Source: a virus (taxonomy: Duplodnaviria > Heunggongvirae > Uroviricota > Caudoviricetes). From it: a stretch of 14,374 nucleotides of DNA. The notes under the pieces were generated by a model, which did no database searches, had not been told where the DNA came from, and saw nothing but the letters and a program-made list of their open reading frames with translations. The stretch lies in the IMG/VR virus record IMGVR_UViG_2778261203_000003; one strand, 5' to 3'. The translations under genes were made by a program, and so were the position numbers. This document shows positions 5,175-14,374 of the stretch, in pieces. Each line of letters opens with the position of its first letter. Position 1 is the first letter of the stretch.

Positions 5175-5927
5175 ATGAACCTTGAAGCCTTACCAAAATA
5201 TTACTCCCCAAAATCTCCAAAATTGAGCGATGACGCTCCAGCGACAGGCACCGGTTGTTTAACAATTACGGATGTAATGGCAGCGCAGGGGATGGTGCAG
5301 TCGAAAGCACCACTTGGGTTGGCCTTATTTCTGGCAAAAGTTGGTGTTCAGGACCCTCAGTTTGCGATTGAAGGCCTGCTAAATTACGCGATGGCACTGG
5401 ATAACCCGACATTGAACAAATTGAGTGAAGAAATCCGGTTACAGATTATTCCTTACCTCGTGAGTTTTGCCTTTGCTGATTACTCCAGGTCTGCGGCAAG
5501 TAAGGCTCGCTGTGAGCATTGTTCAGGTACGGGATTTTATAATGTATTGCGCGAAGTGGTGAAACACTACAGACGCGGGGAATCTGTAATCAAGGAAGAA
5601 TGGGTGAAGGAACTATGTCAGCATTGCCATGGTAAGGGCGAAGCCAGCACAGCGTGCAGAGGGTGTAAGGGTAAAGGGATTGTTCTGGATGAAAAAAGAA
5701 CCCGGTTTCATGGCGTACCGGTATATAAGATTTGTGGGCGTTGTAATGGAAACCGGTTTAGTCGTTTACCGACCACGCTGGCACGACGTCATGTTCAGAA
5801 GCTGGTACCAGACCTGACCGATTATCAGTGGTATAAGGGGTATGCGGACGTCATTGGTAAACTGGTAACAAAGTGCTGGCAGGAAGAAGCATACGCGGAA
5901 GCGCAATTGAGGAAGGTGACGAGATAA
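5175..5927 (+). CDS. quuQ: Q-type late-gene antiterminator, 250 aa
   Basis: Start ATG 5175 (MNLEALPKYY...) with RBS GGAGAA. Several Cys pairs (CEHCSG, CQHCHGKG, CRGCKGKG, CGRCNG) typical of Q-family zinc-binding antiterminators. Followed by a promoter plus terminator pair. Confidence 0.85.
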   Translation: MNLEALPKYYSPKSPKLSDDAPATGTGCLTITDVMAAQGMVQSKAPLGLALFLAKVGVQDPQFAIEGLLNYAMALDNPTLNKLSEEIRLQIIPYLVSFAFADYSRSAASKARCEHCSGTGFYNVLREVVKHYRRGESVIKEEWVKELCQHCHGKGEASTACRGCKGKGIVLDEKRTRFHGVPVYKICGRCNGNRFSRLPTTLARRHVQKLVPDLTDYQWYKGYADVIGKLVTKCWQEEAYAEAQLRKVTR

Positions 5928-5958
5928 ATGATTTTTGCTGAAGATGGCGACATGATGT

Positions 5959-5987
5959 TTGCATTTTTCAAAAAATATGGATAAAAT
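5959..5987 (+). promoter_or_regulatory. Candidate late promoter (pR'-like) downstream of quuQ
   Basis: TTGCAT (5959-5964), 17-nt spacer, TAAAAT (5982-5987), about 30 nt after the quuQ stop, with a strong terminator roughly 45 nt downstream. This is the arrangement lambdoid phages use for Q antitermination. Exact element assignment is unverified. Confidence 0.4.
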
Positions 5988-6033
5988 TTTTTCAACGATG
6001 GGCTTTGTATACCCGACGTTAAGAAAAAGTAGA

Positions 6034-6060
6034 AAACCCGCTGATGAGCGGGTTTTGTGC
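6034..6060 (+). terminator. Rho-independent terminator (tR'-like) after the candidate late promoter
   Basis: Stem CCCGCT (6037-6042), loop GATG, stem AGCGGG (6047-6052), then TTTTGTGCTTT. An A run upstream could make it bidirectional. Confidence 0.55.
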
Positions 6061-6348
6061 TTTAAATGGGGCAATGGTAATGTTGAATCTCATCCCGGGA
6101 CTCATGTCTGTTAACTTATTATTTAGCTGGTGACTTGGTTATTTGCCTGATGTTTAAAATGTTTTCTTCCAGTACAATGTCCCTAAACACAATGAGTCTG
6201 CTTATTATATTATTAGCAGAGCTATTACGGCCAAAGTACAGCATAAGCTTTTAAAGCCAATCAACCAGTCATCAAGACAGACGGGGTTATTCATAAAAAC
6301 TCTCCATGTGTGATCCGATGGGGCCTGAAATTAAAGCTTTAATATAGC

Positions 6349-6561
6349 TCATGAAAGGTAAACATTGGCAGCTGAAGGGCCACGCAGACCATTTATCCGG
6401 CAAAATTCCACGCGTAATCCGGTGGTAATTTCTTCTGCATCGCGGAGATTGAGCGCTGAAACATGAAGCTGGACATCGATACGACCATCGGATGGGGTGA
6501 TAAGACCCTTGCCGCTTTTGCCGTCAAAGGTTTTGACAATTCCTGTCATTTTACGGGACAA
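6349..6561 (-). CDS. cspF: Cold-shock protein family paralog CspF, 70 aa
   Basis: Translation [70 protein letters not shown] has the CspA-family fold signature and CspF-like divergence from the RNA-binding motifs. Confidence 0.9.
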
Positions 6562-6832
6562 AAAAATTCCTTAATACTGATAACTTGGCGCACTATACAC
6601 ACGTTCCTGAAGAAAGCTATAGTTTTTTGATGGGGTTGAAGATGGCTGGATGTCTAAAATAAACATTGCTTCATATGTTCAACTATGCGTTAATGATTGC
6701 GTCGGTTTGAAGAACAGACGATATACGAAGTAGTTTACTAAAGCAGTTCTCATTTCAGGTGTTATTCACTTATTCCTTCTTTGAGTCTCTCCAATTAAGT
6801 ACGAAGTCGTTTCTGTTATGCAAACCATTTAT

Positions 6833-6845
6833 GCCGAAAGGCTCA
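6833..6845 (+). promoter_or_regulatory. Csp 5'-UTR 'upstream box' element ahead of the cspB RBS
   Basis: GCCGAAAGGCTCA at 6833-6845, close to the GCCGAAAGGCACA element described in the cspA-family 5' UTRs, 16 nt upstream of the cspB ATG. Confidence 0.4.
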
Positions 6846-6861
6846 AGTTAAGGAATGTAGA

Positions 6862-7077
6862 ATGTCAAATAAAATGACTGGTTTAGTAAAATGGTTTAAC
6901 GCTGATAAAGGTTTCGGCTTTATTTCTCCTGTTGATGGTAGTAAAGATGTGTTTGTGCATTTTTCTGCGATTCAGAATGATAATTATCGAACCTTATTTG
7001 AAGGTCAAAAGGTTACCTTCTCTATAGAGAGTGGTGCTAAAGGTCCTGCAGCAGCAAATGTCATCATTACTGATTAA
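6862..7077 (+). CDS. cspB: Cold-shock protein CspB, 71 aa
   Basis: Translation [71 protein letters not shown] carries the RNP1 (KGFGFI) and RNP2 (VFVHF) motifs. Confidence 0.95.
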
Positions 7078-7359
7078 AATTCATCGCTCGTCTGTATACG
7101 ATAACGAAGAAGGCTGATGCCTGAGTAGAGATACGGACAGAGTAGTGAATATTGGATCTCTTTAATAAAAAGTAAGGAGGTCCAATACATGAAACAATGG
7201 CTAGCATATTTGGCAAAATCTTAATCAGGAAAAGTATGCTAACCATTGTGGTGAAGTGCAGGTTTGCTGCATGAATAGTTTTACAGCAGAAGCTAACTGC
7301 TGGCATGGCAAAACAAAGTGCGTAAGTGGATGACTCCCACAAAAAGCACCACAATCTCA

Positions 7360-8362: not shown

Positions 8363-9386
<1,024 letters not shown>

Positions 9387-10463: not shown

Positions 10464-10631
10464 TTTGATGCTATTGCATTGATAATTCAGGAAAATTCTC
10501 TTTGTCTGTTTGTGTAAAATTTAGACTATCGTATGTTGATTATTGCGATGTTTCATCTTATCTTTTACACGTTTGCACCATATAATCGACTTACTGTGTA
10601 ACTGGAAAGTCATAACAGACTAAAAGAGGAA

Positions 10632-10808
10632 ATGATGAATATTGAAAACTTAAAAACAAAAGCAGAAGCAGATATTTCTGAATATATAACAAAAAAAATT
10701 ATTGAACTTAAGAAAAAGACCGGGAAAGAAGTTACCAGTATTCAGTTTACCGCACGGGAAAAAATGACGGGTCTTGAAAGCTATGATGTCAAGATTAATT
10801 TAATCTGA
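10632..10808 (+). CDS. gnsB: GnsB (GnsA/GnsB family) protein, 57-58 aa
   Basis: Manual translation MMNIENLKTKAEADISEYITKKIIELKKKTGKEVTSIQFTAREKMTGLESYDVKINLI* with tandem ATGs at 10632 and 10635. RBS AAGAGGA at 10623-10629. Not in the ORF track (below cutoff). Confidence 0.8.
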   Translation: MMNIENLKTKAEADISEYITKKIIELKKKTGKEVTSIQFTAREKMTGLESYDVKINLI

Positions 10809-10835
10809 TGTATTCAATAATAAAATTTATCCATA

Positions 10836-10866
10836 AACCTCGTTTTTACGGGGTTTTGTTATATTT
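10836..10866 (+). terminator. Candidate rho-independent terminator after gnsB
   Basis: Stem AACCTCG (10836-10842), loop TTTTTA, stem CGGGGTT (10849-10855, one G-U pair), then TTTGTTATATTT. Confidence 0.5.
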
Positions 10867-10922
10867 GAATGGTTCCGAATATCTAAATCACAATTGTTGA
10901 TGGTTTTTATTAAACCAATGCA

Positions 10923-10951
10923 GTCCGGCTCAGGAGTGAGAGAAGCCGGAC
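10923..10951 (-). terminator. Hairpin immediately downstream of ydfO; possible terminator
   Basis: Perfect 8-bp inverted repeat GTCCGGCT (10923-10930) / AGCCGGAC (10944-10951) with a 13-nt loop, 9 nt past the ydfO stop. The trailing U run on the minus strand is imperfect. Confidence 0.3.
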
Positions 10952-10959
10952 GTTATGGT

Positions 10960-11370
10960 TTAGCGTGGTAAGATCTGTGTAGTTTTCTGGATGCTTTCAG
11001 TAAATAGTAATGAATTATCAAAGGTATAGTAATATCTTTTTTGTTCGTGGATATTTGTAACCCACCGAAAAACTCCTGCTTTAGCAAGGTTTCTTCTGTA
11101 TTCCTGAAATGTGATCTCTCTGGATTTCAGCTTATTAGAGGTCGTTTCTATAAGATGCCTATCCTTTGAAAATTTGACAGACACAATGTTTTTTAGGCCC
11201 TTTAATAACACTGTATTATCATTTTTTAATACAATATGAACATTCTCTGTGGCTAAATAGTAAATGTAATGTGAGACATTGTGACGTTTTAGCTCAGAAT
11301 AAAACCATTGATAGTTTAAATCGTTTCGAACTTTATCAAATATTTGTTTAAAAATGACTACCTGATCCAT
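10960..11370 (-). CDS. ydfO: YdfO (DUF1398-family) protein, 136 aa (the ORF track extends to an upstream ATG at 11385)
   Basis: [104 protein letters not shown]... matches YdfO as recalled. The ATG at 11370 has a GGAAGG RBS; the ATG at 11385 has none. Confidence 0.8.
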
Positions 11371-11427
11371 AGATAAACCTTCCATGTGATATGAGGGGGC
11401 GTAGTCTGCACGATTATCTAAATTGCT

Positions 11428-11661
11428 TCAATCTGGTCTGACCTGTTTTCTGAGCAATTCAGTAATGTCACTCTTTTCTTTGTTTGCTTCAGAAGAAACT
11501 CTTTTTTCTGAGCACAGTCTCCGGCGGCAGGCTTCAATGACCCAGGCTGAGAAATTCCCGGACCCTTTTTGCTCAAGAGCGATGTTAATTTGTTCAATCA
11601 TTTGGTTAGGAAAGCGGATGTTGCGGGTTGTTGTTCTGCGGGTTCTGTTCTTCGTTGACAT
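11428..11661 (-). CDS. ynfO: YnfO (YlcI/YnfO, DUF3950-family) small protein, 77 aa, with a ribbon-helix-helix-like core
   Basis: The segment NIRFPNQMIEQINIALEQKGSGNFSAWVIEACRRRL fits a beta-strand / helix / G-x-S-x-N turn / helix pattern typical of RHH DNA-binding domains. Lies directly upstream of ydfO on the same strand. Confidence 0.75.
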   Translation of the reverse strand: MSTKNRTRRTTTRNIRFPNQMIEQINIALEQKGSGNFSAWVIEACRRRLCSEKRVSSEANKEKSDITELLRKQVRPD

Positions 11662-11776
11662 GAGGTTGCCCCGTATTCAGTGTCGCTGATTTGTATTGTC
11701 TGAAGTTGTTTTTACGTTAAGTTGATGCATGCGTGATGCACTGGATGCACGTAAATCCCGTCTCTCAGGAGGGCGA

Positions 11777-12172
11777 ATGACCAAAGAGACTCAATCAACA
11801 ACTGTTTCAGCCACTGCTTCGCAGGCTGACGTTACTGACGTGGTGCCAGCGACGGAGGGCGAAAACGCCAGCGCGGCGCAGCCGGACGTGAACGCGCAGA
11901 TCACCGCAGCGGTTGCGGCAGAAAACAGCCGCATTATGGGGATCCTCAACTGTGAGGAGGCTCACGGACGCGAAGAACAGGCCCGCGTGCTGGCAGAAAC
12001 CCCCGGTATGACCGTGGAAACGGCCCGCCGCATTCTGGCCGCAGCACCACAGAGTGCACAGGCGCGCAGTGACACTGCGCTGGATCGTCTGATGCAGGGG
12101 GCACCGGCACCGCTGGCTGCAGGTAACCCGGCATCTGATGCCGTTAACGATTTGCTGAACACACCAGTGTAA
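11777..12172 (+). CDS. Nu3: Lambda-like capsid scaffolding protein Nu3, 131 aa (the ORF track begins at 11729 with 16 extra in-frame codons)
   Basis: ATG 11777 preceded by GGAGG (11768-11772). Ala/Glu/Gln-rich, acidic composition typical of scaffolds. Sits directly upstream of lambda D in the lambda order C/Nu3-D-E. Upstream in-frame sequence is open only from 11726, so no gene C body is present. Confidence 0.65.
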   Translation: MTKETQSTTVSATASQADVTDVVPATEGENASAAQPDVNAQITAAVAAENSRIMGILNCEEAHGREEQARVLAETPGMTVETARRILAAAPQSAQARSDTALDRLMQGAPAPLAAGNPASDAVNDLLNTPV

Positions 12173-12181
12173 GGGATGTTT

Positions 12182-12514
12182 ATGACGAGCAAAGAAACCT
12201 TTACCCATTACCAGCCGCTGGGCAACAGTGACCCGGCTCATACCGCAACCGCGCCCGGCGGATTGAGTGCGAAAGCGCCTGCAATGACCCCGCTGATGCT
12301 GGACACCTCCACCCGTAAGCTGGTTGCGTGGGATGGCACCACCGACGGTGCTGCCGTTGGCATTCTTGCAGTTGCTGCTGACCAGACCAGCACCACACTG
12401 ACGTTCTACAAGTCCGGCACGTTCCGTTATGAGGATGTGCTCTGGCCGGAGGCTGCCAGCGACGAGACGAAAAAACGGACCGCGTTTGCCGGAACGGCAA
12501 TCAGCATCGTTTAA
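12182..12514 (+). CDS. D: Lambda head decoration protein D (gpD), 110 aa
   Basis: [110 protein letters not shown] is near-identical to phage lambda gpD as recalled. RBS AAGGGA. Confidence 0.9.
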
Positions 12515-12531
12515 CTTTACCCTTCATCACT

Positions 12532-12556
12532 AAAGGCCGCCTGTGCGGCTTTTTTT
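12532..12556 (+). terminator. Stable hairpin plus U run between D and E; terminator-like or a translational control structure
   Basis: AAAGGCCGC (12532-12540), loop CTGT, GCGGCTTT (12545-12552), followed by TTTTTT, 14 nt upstream of the E start. Confidence 0.35.
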
Positions 12557-12569
12557 ACGGGATTTTTTT

Positions 12570-13424
12570 ATGTCGATGTACACAACCGCCCAGCTGCTGG
12601 CGGCAAATGAGCAGAAATTTAAGTTTGATCCGCTGTTTCTGCGTCTCTTTTTCCGTGAGAGCTATCCCTTCACCACGGAGAAAGTCTATCTCTCACAAAT
12701 TCCGGGACTGGTAAACATGGCGCTGTACGTTTCGCCGATTGTTTCCGGTGAGGTTATCCGTTCCCGTGGCGGCTCCACCTCTGAATTTACGCCGGGATAT
12801 GTCAAGCCGAAGCATGAAGTGAATCCGCAGATGACCCTGCGTCGCCTGCCGGATGAAGATCCGCAGAATCTGGCGGACCCGGCTTACCGCCGCCGTCGCA
12901 TCATCATGCAGAACATGCGTGACGAAGAGCTGGCCATTGCTCAGGTCGAAGAGATGCAGGCAGTTTCTGCCGTGCTTAAGGGCAAATACACCATGACCGG
13001 TGAAGCCTTCGATCCGGTTGAGGTGGATATGGGCCGCAGTGAGGAGAATAACATCACGCAGTCCGGCGGCACGGAGTGGAGCAAGCGTGACAAGTCCACG
13101 TATGACCCGACCGACGATATCGAAGCCTACGCGCTGAACGCCAGCGGTGTGGTGAATATCATCGTGTTCGATCCGAAAGGCTGGGCGCTGTTCCGTTCCT
13201 TCAAAGCCGTCAGGGAGAAGCTGGATACCCGTCGTGGCTCTCATTCCGAGCTGGAGACAGCGGTGAAAGACCTGGGTAAAGCGGTGTCCTATAAGGGGAT
13301 GTATGGCGATGTGGCCATCGTCGTGTATTCCGGACAGTACGTGGAAAACGGCGTCAAAAAGAACTTCCTGCCGGACAACACGATGGTGCTGGGTAACACT
13401 CATGCACGCGGTCTGCGCACCTAA
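12570..13424 (+). pseudogene. E: Lambda major capsid protein E (gpE), truncated at its 3' end: 284 codons retained of about 341
   Basis: MSMYTTAQLLAANEQKFKFDPLFLRLFFRESYPFTTEKVYLSQIPGLVNMALYVSPIVSGEV... matches lambda gpE through ...[11 protein letters not shown] and is then cut by TAA at 13422-13424 where lambda continues YGCIQDADAQ. Unrelated (tail fiber) sequence follows. Confidence 0.85.
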
Positions 13425-13426
13425 CC

Positions 13427-14374
13427 GCGCTGACAGACAATACGCAGGGGGCAACAGGTCTTGAGTTATACGAGGTGTATAACAACGGATATCCAACAGC
13501 GTATGGAAATATCATTCACCTGAAAGGGATGACAGCCGTTGGCGAAGGTGAGTTACTCATCGGCTGGAGTGGTACAAGCGGTGCTCATGCTCCGGCATTT
13601 ATTCGTTCACGACGGGATACGACCGACGCAAACTGGTCGCCGTGGGCGCAGCTTTACACCTCGGCTCATCCTCCTGCAGAGTTTTATCCAGTCGGTGCAC
13701 CAATCCCGTGGCCATCAGATACCGTTCCGTCTGGCTATGCCCTGATGCAGGGGCAGACTTTTGACAAATCTGCATACCCGAAACTTGCAGCGGCTTATCC
13801 GTCAGGCGTGATCCCTGATATGCGTGGCTGGACGATTAAGGGCAAACCTGCCAGTGGTCGGGCCGTATTGTCTCAGGAACAGGACGGCATTAAATCGCAT
13901 ACCCACAGCGCCAGCGCATCCAGTACGGATTTGGGGACGAAAACCACATCGTCGTTTGATTACGGCACTAAATCCACGAATAACACTGGTGCGCATACCC
14001 ATAGTTTAAGTGGCAGCACGAATGCAGCTGGTAATCACAGCCATAGAGATGGCCGTCGATTTAACCCCAGTGTTTTTAAAGATACTTATCAATATGGTTA
14101 TACAAGCTCAGGTCAAAATACCTGGGGTGTACAAGGCTCAGTAGGTATGTCTACGGGGTGGTTAGCTAATACCAGTACAGATGGTAATCATAGCCACTCA
14201 CTGTCCGGCACAGCAGCATCTGCAGGTGCACACGCGCATACTGTCGGTATTGGTGCTCATACGCACTCCGTTGCGATTGGTTCACATGGACACACCATCA
14301 CCGTTAACGCTGCTGGTAACGCGGAAAACACCGTCAAAAACATCGCATTTAACTATATTGTGAGGCTTGCATAA
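13427..14374 (+). pseudogene. stf: 3' fragment of a lambda-type side tail fiber gene (Stf C-terminal region); the 5' boundary is approximate
   Basis: In-frame translation ...[53 protein letters not shown]... ending ...[11 protein letters not shown] matches the C-terminal part of lambda Stf as recalled. Repeated G-x-H-x-H motifs near the C-terminus. The frame is open only from 13397 and there is no N-terminal part; the window ends at its stop codon. Confidence 0.8.

Follow-up and report, generated by a model that had tools for sequence, protein, structure and literature searches.

The neighbouring genes ynfO and ydfO lie on the minus strand of a 14,374-nucleotide stretch of viral DNA (IMG/VR record IMGVR_UViG_2778261203_000003, Caudoviricetes), hereafter the window. 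These 14.4 kb represent a defective lambdoid prophage of the Qin type from Escherichia coli. Our main finding is that the two genes are probably independent accessory units of the prophage and not a dedicated two-component system. An initial annotation had taken them for a conserved two-gene module, a small ribbon-helix-helix (RHH)-like protein ahead of a DUF1398 protein, and had likened this architecture to that of many toxin-antitoxin (TA) and defence modules. The comparison of phage and bacterial genomes described below did not bear out either the module or the analogy. Both genes have long been annotated in E. coli K-12 as "y-genes" and their existence is not news.

The basic description of the locus was accurate. 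The first gene, ynfO (11428..11661, minus strand), codes for a protein of 77 amino acids of the YlcI/YnfO family (DUF3950), as indicated by the open reading frame (ORF) list, Pfam and NCBIfam, the K-12 annotation and the signs of purifying selection described below. The second, ydfO (10960..11370, minus strand), codes for 136 amino acids and belongs to DUF1398 according to its ORF, Pfam, the PDB and the RefSeq annotation. They are co-oriented, with a gap of 57 nt between the ynfO stop codon at 11428 and the ydfO ATG at 11370. YnfO matched the Pfam family DUF3950 (PF13132) with E=2.7e-21 and 75.6 bits (cut-off 25), the NCBIfam family YlcI_YnfO_N (NF041551) with 36.6 bits (cut-off 30) and PHROG 949 with E=6e-34, and YdfO matched DUF1398 (PF07166) with E=1.7e-46 and 157.5 bits (cut-off 22). 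The ATG at 11370 is preceded, 7 nt before, by a Shine-Dalgarno sequence (GGAAGG, 11378-11383). An alternative ydfO start at ATG 11385, which would give 141 amino acids (10960..11385), has no such sequence.

The linkage between the two families was surveyed in phage collections, where the counts are of records with a homologue, and in a set of 5426 complete E. coli genomes. YnfO homologues were found in 155 phage records versus 43 for DUF1398. In the E. coli genomes the 5' block of ynfO was found at 8375 places versus 3876 for ydfO-like DNA, counts that are approximate since the sensitivity of megablast differs between the two queries. This conserved cos-proximal block of 218 nt (11512..11729, minus strand) comprises the 68 nt upstream of ynfO and codons 1-49, is 100% identical to lambda from 48242-48371 onward, and was present in 3787 of the 5426 genomes. 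The YnfO family abounds in E. coli prophages, where a single genome may hold as many as 12 copies, and it stands without DUF1398 in most of the phage records and in at least half of the E. coli places, which is not the linkage expected of a type II TA system. Among 78 IMG/VR loci anchored on the YnfO N-terminus, DUF1398 was adjacent in 40, about 850 nt away behind lambdap79 in 6 and missing in 32. These last loci carried bor (12), lambdap79 together with gnsB on the other strand (11) or something else or nothing (9), a variable cargo in agreement with the initial view of this junction as a hotspot for accessory genes. Direct adjacency of ynfO and DUF1398 was found only in Qin-type prophages. 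The initial annotation had itself named the lack of co-occurrence outside close relatives as an outcome that would speak against its proposal, and this is what the neighbourhood survey showed.

The linkage fails equally when followed from DUF1398. This family has few members, 205 representative clusters at E<=0.001 in a set of 1.84 billion proteins, and a scan of one genome per species found it only in Enterobacteriaceae after lambda contamination had been discarded. Diverged copies occur in Escherichia (the ycgX type, next to iraM/bluR), Citrobacter, Klebsiella, Kluyvera, Raoultella, Pseudocitrobacter and Salmonella diarizonae, and no YnfO homologue was found within 6 kb of any of them. In this survey the right end of lambda appeared in dozens of unrelated assemblies (Kitasatospora, Brevibacillus, Flavobacterium, Pedobacter, Cohnella and others), often as contigs of about 3.5 kb. 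This is presumably spike-in or control DNA, and it explains the "YlcI/YnfO" proteins ascribed to Staphylococcus or Bacillus.

In addition, a diverged YnfO subfamily was found in 32 satellite-like contigs, about 13-20 kb long and carrying genes for an integrase and a primase, and none of the 32 loci carried DUF1398. Here YnfO adjoins primase and regulatory genes and not packaging genes. In all 32 loci the YnfO ORF lies antisense inside a long frame (122-566 amino acids) of a unidirectional operon. The amino acid identities in these loci were 0.69 and 0.81 for the YnfO frame versus 0.62 and 0.66 for the opposite frame, and two of the long opposite-strand proteins gave no match in Pfam.

Comparison with phage lambda suggests how the two genes come to abut in the window. 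Lambda has both of them, DUF1398 as lambdap78 and a YnfO homologue of 64 amino acids at 48109-48303 on the minus strand. By blastn, window 11600-11729 corresponds to lambda 48242-48371, and the identity is 100% from 68 nt upstream of ynfO to codon 49. After this codon lambda has about 590 bp absent from the window, which hold the last part of ylcI, lambdap79 on the opposite strand and a spacer. The homology picks up again about 75 nt ahead of the ydfO start and stops just past the hairpin that follows the gene, so that the ydfO stem-loop is the boundary on the 3' side. In lambda and in DLP12 a distance of about 850 nt separates the two genes, and a gene on the opposite strand (ybcW/lambdap79) lies between them. 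The pair thus recurs in DLP12, as noted in the initial annotation, and also in lambda, at the junction of the lysis and packaging genes, though separated there. Where Shiga toxin (Stx) phages carry HNH-TerS as their packaging module, Rz and the HNH gene have only the YnfO gene between them, at 41 nt from the start of HNH. The 64-residue YlcI/YnfO homologue, under purifying selection and about 200 bp away from cos, has no coding sequence (CDS) in the reference lambda record NC_001416 and appears in some other lambda records as a hypothetical protein. Homologues of both genes in lambda, the best-studied phage, give the pair a modest remaining interest.

The C-terminal tail of YnfO appears to reflect the same rearrangement. 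In the 77-residue form the variable tail covers residues 51-77 (11431..11511, minus strand), its last 6 codons come from the DNA upstream of ydfO, and the stop codon (11428-11430) lies inside the -35-like hexamer TTGAAG of the ydfO upstream element described below. The tail exists because the ynfO frame runs into this element. It was found only with a directly adjacent DUF1398 gene, and every other architecture had the 64-residue form, including the lambda-type loci with DUF1398, so that the type of tail tracks adjacency and not the presence of DUF1398. A direct repeat of 14 nt (CTGTTTTCTGAGCA / CTTTTTTCTGAGCA, 11443-11456 and 11501-11514, 58 nt apart) flanks the Qin-specific part of the tail and may mark the recombination that made the 77-residue variant. 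We also observed that ynfO and the 141-residue frame of ydfO are in phase, without an intervening stop codon (11371-11430), and that in 6 contigs a TGA-to-TGG change produces a ynfO-ydfO fusion of 233 amino acids. We rejected this fusion as "Rosetta stone" evidence for a joint function, as it results from a single stop-codon change in 6 contigs and its cluster otherwise contains ordinary 136-residue proteins or fragments.

Considered separately, ydfO fits the features expected of a moron. Phage genomes that are otherwise collinear differ in having or lacking the gene, the boundaries of homology are sharp, and its base composition differs from that of the neighbouring backbone: ydfO has a G+C content of 30-38%, the 5' part of ynfO 47% and the head genes about 60%. 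Upstream there is a conserved element (11403..11443, minus strand) that contains a palindrome, a -35-like hexamer, a 17-nt spacer and a -10-like hexamer, in the order GGTCAGACC-AGA-TTGAAG, 17 nt, CA(N)ACT. In the window the palindrome GGTCAGACC is found at 11435-11443, TTGAAG at 11426-11431 and CAGACT at 11403-11408. The approximately 75 nt upstream of ydfO are conserved in Qin, lambda, E. albertii and the chromosomal ycgX-type copies, which suggests a promoter, and the sequences beyond are unrelated. Such conservation is unusually strong for non-coding DNA compared with the 44-49% protein identity to the ycgX-type paralogues, and the element was located at about 5925-5965 in four compared loci. 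The palindrome is a PdhR box reported from genomic SELEX (systematic evolution of ligands by exponential enrichment, in vitro) at ynfO/ydfO and ybcV/ybcW, and the ybcV mRNA was 10-fold lower in a pdhR mutant (PMC7660256). This upstream element, with its reported PdhR site, is a concrete experimental handle on DUF1398.

Directly 3' of ydfO there is a conserved stem-loop (10911..10962, minus strand) whose outer stem includes the stop codon. The perfect hairpin with an 8-bp stem described in the initial annotation is indeed present at 10923-10951, with arms at 10923-10930 and 10944-10951 (8 nt, 100% complementary) and a loop of 13 nt. The 8-bp repeat alone is unremarkable, because by our own estimate chance alone would supply about 0.8 perfect 8-bp inverted repeats (within 60 nt) in a sequence of 911 nt. 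The RNA of the stem-loop including the outer stem gave -21.9 kcal/mol with z=-5.4 against shuffled sequences, and five diverged variants retain the stem at this position, where one pair shows a compensatory change. There is no U-tract after it and the scan called no terminator there; because the U-tract is absent, this is not a canonical intrinsic terminator. Together, the upstream element, the low G+C content and the stem-loop at the homology boundary give the ydfO of the Qin pair what appears, from its sequence, to be the anatomy of a moron.

The protein itself is better known as a structure than as an activity. PDB entry 2HH8, solved by nuclear magnetic resonance (NMR), is YdfO itself (140 of 141 residues identical), and for this the protein was produced alone. 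Our structure model of YdfO was poor (predicted local distance difference test score, pLDDT, of 55) and the fold search with it uninformative. Among the near-invariant positions of DUF1398, aromatic residues, small residues and arginine predominate, and no acidic, His, Cys or Ser position is conserved in the alignment. No obvious signal peptide was seen in YdfO, for which the sequence was inspected by eye only. The labels "head protein" (PHROG 413 and the lambda RefSeq record) and "putative envelope protein" carried by members of DUF1398 were rejected as annotation artefacts because the gene is antisense to the late operon and lambdap78 is non-essential, as shown by CRISPR interference (PMC10695390).

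Several published observations concern the behaviour of these genes. An ionic liquid raised the expression of ydfO up to 116-fold, and a higher resistance to oxidative stress is cited as an effect of YdfO overexpression (PMC4077768). The level of ydfO changes upon DicC induction and ybcVW goes up after DNase intoxication, according to published reports. The ASKA clone overexpressing ybcV is viable (PMC2853380), and strain BW25113 without the entire Qin prophage was reported to grow like the wild type. One publication lists ydfO as "essential" (PMC8229198). The initial annotation knew of no characterised function for either protein; our full-text literature searches likewise gave no function assigned to ynfO, ylcI, ydfO, ybcV, ycgX, DUF1398 or DUF3950.

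The other claim of the initial annotation, an RHH-like core in YnfO, is plausible. The residue pattern fits a probable RHH core at residues 13-50 (11512..11625, minus strand), with the strand RNIRFP, helix A, a G-S-G-N turn and helix B, preceded by an arm rich in Arg and Thr (residues 1-12). The AlphaFold2 (AF2) model of the monomer left residues 1-18 unstructured and placed helices at 19-32 and 34-51 with a pLDDT of about 85, and the beta-strand of an RHH fold would form only in the dimer. The weak fold matches of YnfO were mostly RHH antitoxins or regulators (ParD, MazE, TacA) and three family members matched a HicB-like PHROG (E=0.01, 1.4e-4 and 0.04). With a more diverse YnfO profile, hhalign aligned the strand and helix A in register with Arc (P=0.006), and with a shallow profile the comparisons with Arc, Mnt and RelB were not significant. 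Searches with profiles from two alignments, run against PDB sequences and Pfam, matched no RHH family. Overall, the residue pattern, the model and these weak matches suggest that YnfO is likely an RHH protein.

From these data we propose the following scenario. YnfO would consist of a conserved domain of about 50 residues, most likely an RHH DNA-binding fold with an arginine-rich N-terminal arm, and its gene lies on the strand opposite the late operon, on the lysis side of the cos and terminase genes, in lambda, DLP12, Qin and Stx phages. It may act as a small dimeric repressor or autoregulator of the leftward transcription antisense to the late operon. The cargo downstream of it is interchangeable (ydfO, bor, others or nothing). 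One such cargo, ydfO, would be an AT-rich moron cassette (about 32% G+C) made up of the control element, the Shine-Dalgarno sequence, the 136-residue DUF1398 frame and the conserved 3' stem-loop. In the Qin type the loss of about 590 bp (the ylcI tail and ybcW/lambdap79), by deletion or recombination, would have brought the two genes together, the ynfO frame entering the ydfO control region and stopping in the -35-like hexamer, and their tight spacing would thus be a secondary junction. YdfO could be a non-toxic cytoplasmic protein made from its own PdhR- and stress-responsive promoter, and it may act through partner binding and not catalysis, because there are no conserved polar residues of a catalytic kind. 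Some points weigh against this scenario. The 77-residue tail found only beside DUF1398 is also expected if YnfO bound YdfO as a partner; in the Qin type the two genes are co-oriented, in frame and 57 nt apart and co-transcription is possible; a simple consensus scan called no sigma-70 promoter upstream of either ynfO or ydfO; and the roles proposed for the two proteins are inferred from position and fold.

Among the alternatives, YnfO/YlcI could serve the packaging end of the phage, where it would bind close to cos or to the first gene for packaging and either control the expression of terminase or, in the lysogen, keep rightward read-through out of the head genes, with ydfO as an unrelated passenger. 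The constant neighbour of YnfO is in fact the packaging module, either cos-Nu1, with a Nu1/NohA homologue divergent upstream in 65 of 74 loci, or, at a distance of 41 nt, HNH-TerS in the Stx phages. The ynfO 5' block and its 68 upstream nucleotides are 100% identical between Qin and lambda, and K-12 has cosN some 200 bp upstream of ynfO. Nevertheless, no operator-like motif common to the lambda-type and Stx-type DNA upstream of ynfO was found, the satellite subfamily lives beside primase and regulatory genes, and in the window the cos and terminase genes have been deleted with ynfO still intact. For packaging, a minimal cos fragment of about 200-400 bp is enough, and a role in cis is thus unlikely. 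We consider this explanation unlikely. In K-12 Qin (locus ~7209-7221) and in lambda, a perfect palindrome GATAATGATTATC is present between cosN and ynfO, outside the DNA retained in the window. It resembles the Fur-box consensus, which would suggest an iron-dependent control of leftward transcription.

A wider reading, to which we would give only a small chance, sees YlcI/YnfO as an overlooked backbone regulator of lambdoid phages and satellite-like elements, an RHH repressor always placed antisense in a long unidirectional operon, that gates transcription of the lysis/packaging junction or controls antisense accessory transcripts. The DUF1398 genes would then be PdhR-wired cassettes reporting the metabolic state of the host, and both would be coupled in Qin. 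If this were true, the translation of ynfO in Qin would run through the ydfO promoter.

It is also possible, though we regard it as rather unlikely, that ydfO alone matters, as a lysogenic-conversion gene that benefits the host in its stress tolerance or metabolic state or excludes other phages, with ynfO irrelevant. The cassette has the moron-like anatomy, low G+C content and presence/absence polymorphism of such genes, and bor, a known conversion gene, fills the same slot in other phages. Furthermore, ydfO responds to stress, ybcV depends on PdhR and ydfO changes on DicC induction. To a large extent this explanation overlaps with the two independent units that we favour, and it differs only in assigning a phenotype; against that phenotype, PADLOC gave no match and the conserved residues of DUF1398 point to no activity.

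The proposal that ynfO and ydfO form a type II TA-like or abortive-infection pair, in which YnfO neutralises YdfO and represses the operon, appears improbable to us. It accounts for two co-oriented genes 57 nt apart with a small, probably RHH, gene first, for weak structural neighbours of YnfO that are mostly RHH antitoxins, for a 77-residue tail present only where DUF1398 is directly adjacent and for the location in a hotspot of accessory genes, and the rare read-through fusion could be added to these. The linkage, however, is unconserved in both directions (155 versus 43 phage records, 8375 versus 3876 places, no DUF1398 in 32 of the 78 loci) and solitary chromosomal paralogues of DUF1398 exist. 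Lambda and DLP12 keep both genes apart and with a different YnfO tail, the lambda-type loci with DUF1398 carry the generic 64-residue tail where a dedicated antitoxin tail would be expected, and ydfO has its own conserved control element. No family of PADLOC-DB v2 matched YnfO or YdfO at E<=1 and no toxin family of Pfam or NCBIfam matched either protein. As for toxicity, overexpression of YdfO and YbcV has been published without lethality, and YdfO was made alone for the NMR structure 2HH8. The fusion is found on 6 contigs only, among ordinary proteins of 136 residues. The useful result here is a negative one: the TA or defence reading has no backing from comparative genomics and the pair does not deserve priority among candidate defence systems.

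Finally, that ynfO is not a real gene but a shadow frame or recombination remnant, as could be thought from its missing annotation in the lambda RefSeq record, its clearly accidental 3' tail and an 88-residue ORF open antisense across it with coinciding third codon positions, is hardly credible, since the non-synonymous/synonymous ratio in codons 1-50 is far below 1, the frame is essentially always intact while stops break the antisense frame in Stx-phage and several lambda-type copies, and the diverged subfamily keeps the YnfO protein pattern with the YnfO frame better conserved than the opposite one. In codons 1-50, compared with three diverged phage copies, the synonymous differences per site were 16/34, 22/34 and 13/33 (0.39-0.64) and the non-synonymous ones 9/116, 8/116 and 4/117 (0.03-0.08), which indicates strong purifying selection on these first 50 codons. 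The selection on this frame and the breaks in the antisense frame of the variants are the reasons to conclude that ynfO codes for a protein.

The remaining genes of the window are those of a lambdoid prophage, with integrase, flxA, relBE, hokD, ydfU, a Q-like antiterminator, cspF, cspB, lysis genes, cspI, gnsB, ydfO and ynfO, followed by remnants of head genes and a tail-fibre gene. Positions 10600-11729 are 100% identical to Qin of K-12 MG1655, where the genes are annotated as gnsB, ydfO and ynfO, and the homology to MG1655 stops at 11728-11729. At this point (11728..11729) a blastn comparison against lambda revealed a deletion junction, where the sequence upstream of ynfO runs directly into the 3' third of C, the gene of the head protease. 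The deletion, found in the window prophage and not in K-12 Qin, removed cos, nu1, A, W, B and most of C. Its joint has a 2-nt overlap (CA) and leaves 68 bp of native DNA upstream of ynfO, after which window 11728-13423 corresponds to lambda 5293-6988. Homology to the capsid gene E ends at 13423 and a tail-fibre-like frame begins at 13475.

On the other side, gnsB (10632-10808) is convergent with ydfO and matches the GnsA/GnsB "toxin" family PF08178 (E=3e-35). Other prophages have gnsB beside the lambdap79 homologue, in place of ydfO. After gnsB there is a terminator-like hairpin with a T-run (10835..10856, plus strand), which could stop ydfO transcripts too.

The closest known systems are the right end of lambda and the ylcI-ybcW-ybcV region of DLP12, where the same two families as in the window are found between the lysis cassette and cos/nu1. 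They share with the window the orientation antisense to the late operon, the identical ynfO 5' block and a ydfO product with 79% protein identity. The differences are the intervening ~590 bp with ybcW/lambdap79, a YlcI of 64 amino acids with another tail and a bor gene that follows, whereas in the window the genes abut and gnsB is convergent. YcgX and the other chromosomal DUF1398 proteins have the same domain as YdfO with 25-49% identity, and in Escherichia and Citrobacter the ycgX-type genes also share the ydfO upstream element. Unlike ydfO, they stand alone outside lambdoid prophages with no YnfO homologue nearby.

Compared with the RHH repressors and antitoxins (P22 Arc, Mnt, CopG, ParD and the RHH-type MazE), YnfO is similar in size, has the succession of strand, helix, G-x-S turn and helix with a basic N-terminal arm, and can be aligned in register with Arc. 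It differs from them in having no significant sequence or fold match, no conserved partner gene and a C-terminal tail that is not conserved. As for ydfO, the lambdoid morons, such as bor and lom of lambda, are autonomous promoter-gene-terminator cassettes inserted between backbone genes. Unlike bor, to which the lambda record assigns a role in serum resistance, ydfO ends in a stem-loop without a U-tract. It resembles these morons in its presence/absence pattern, low G+C content, orientation opposite to the operon, own upstream element and 3' stem-loop, and in homology boundaries that fall exactly at the upstream element and at the stem-loop.

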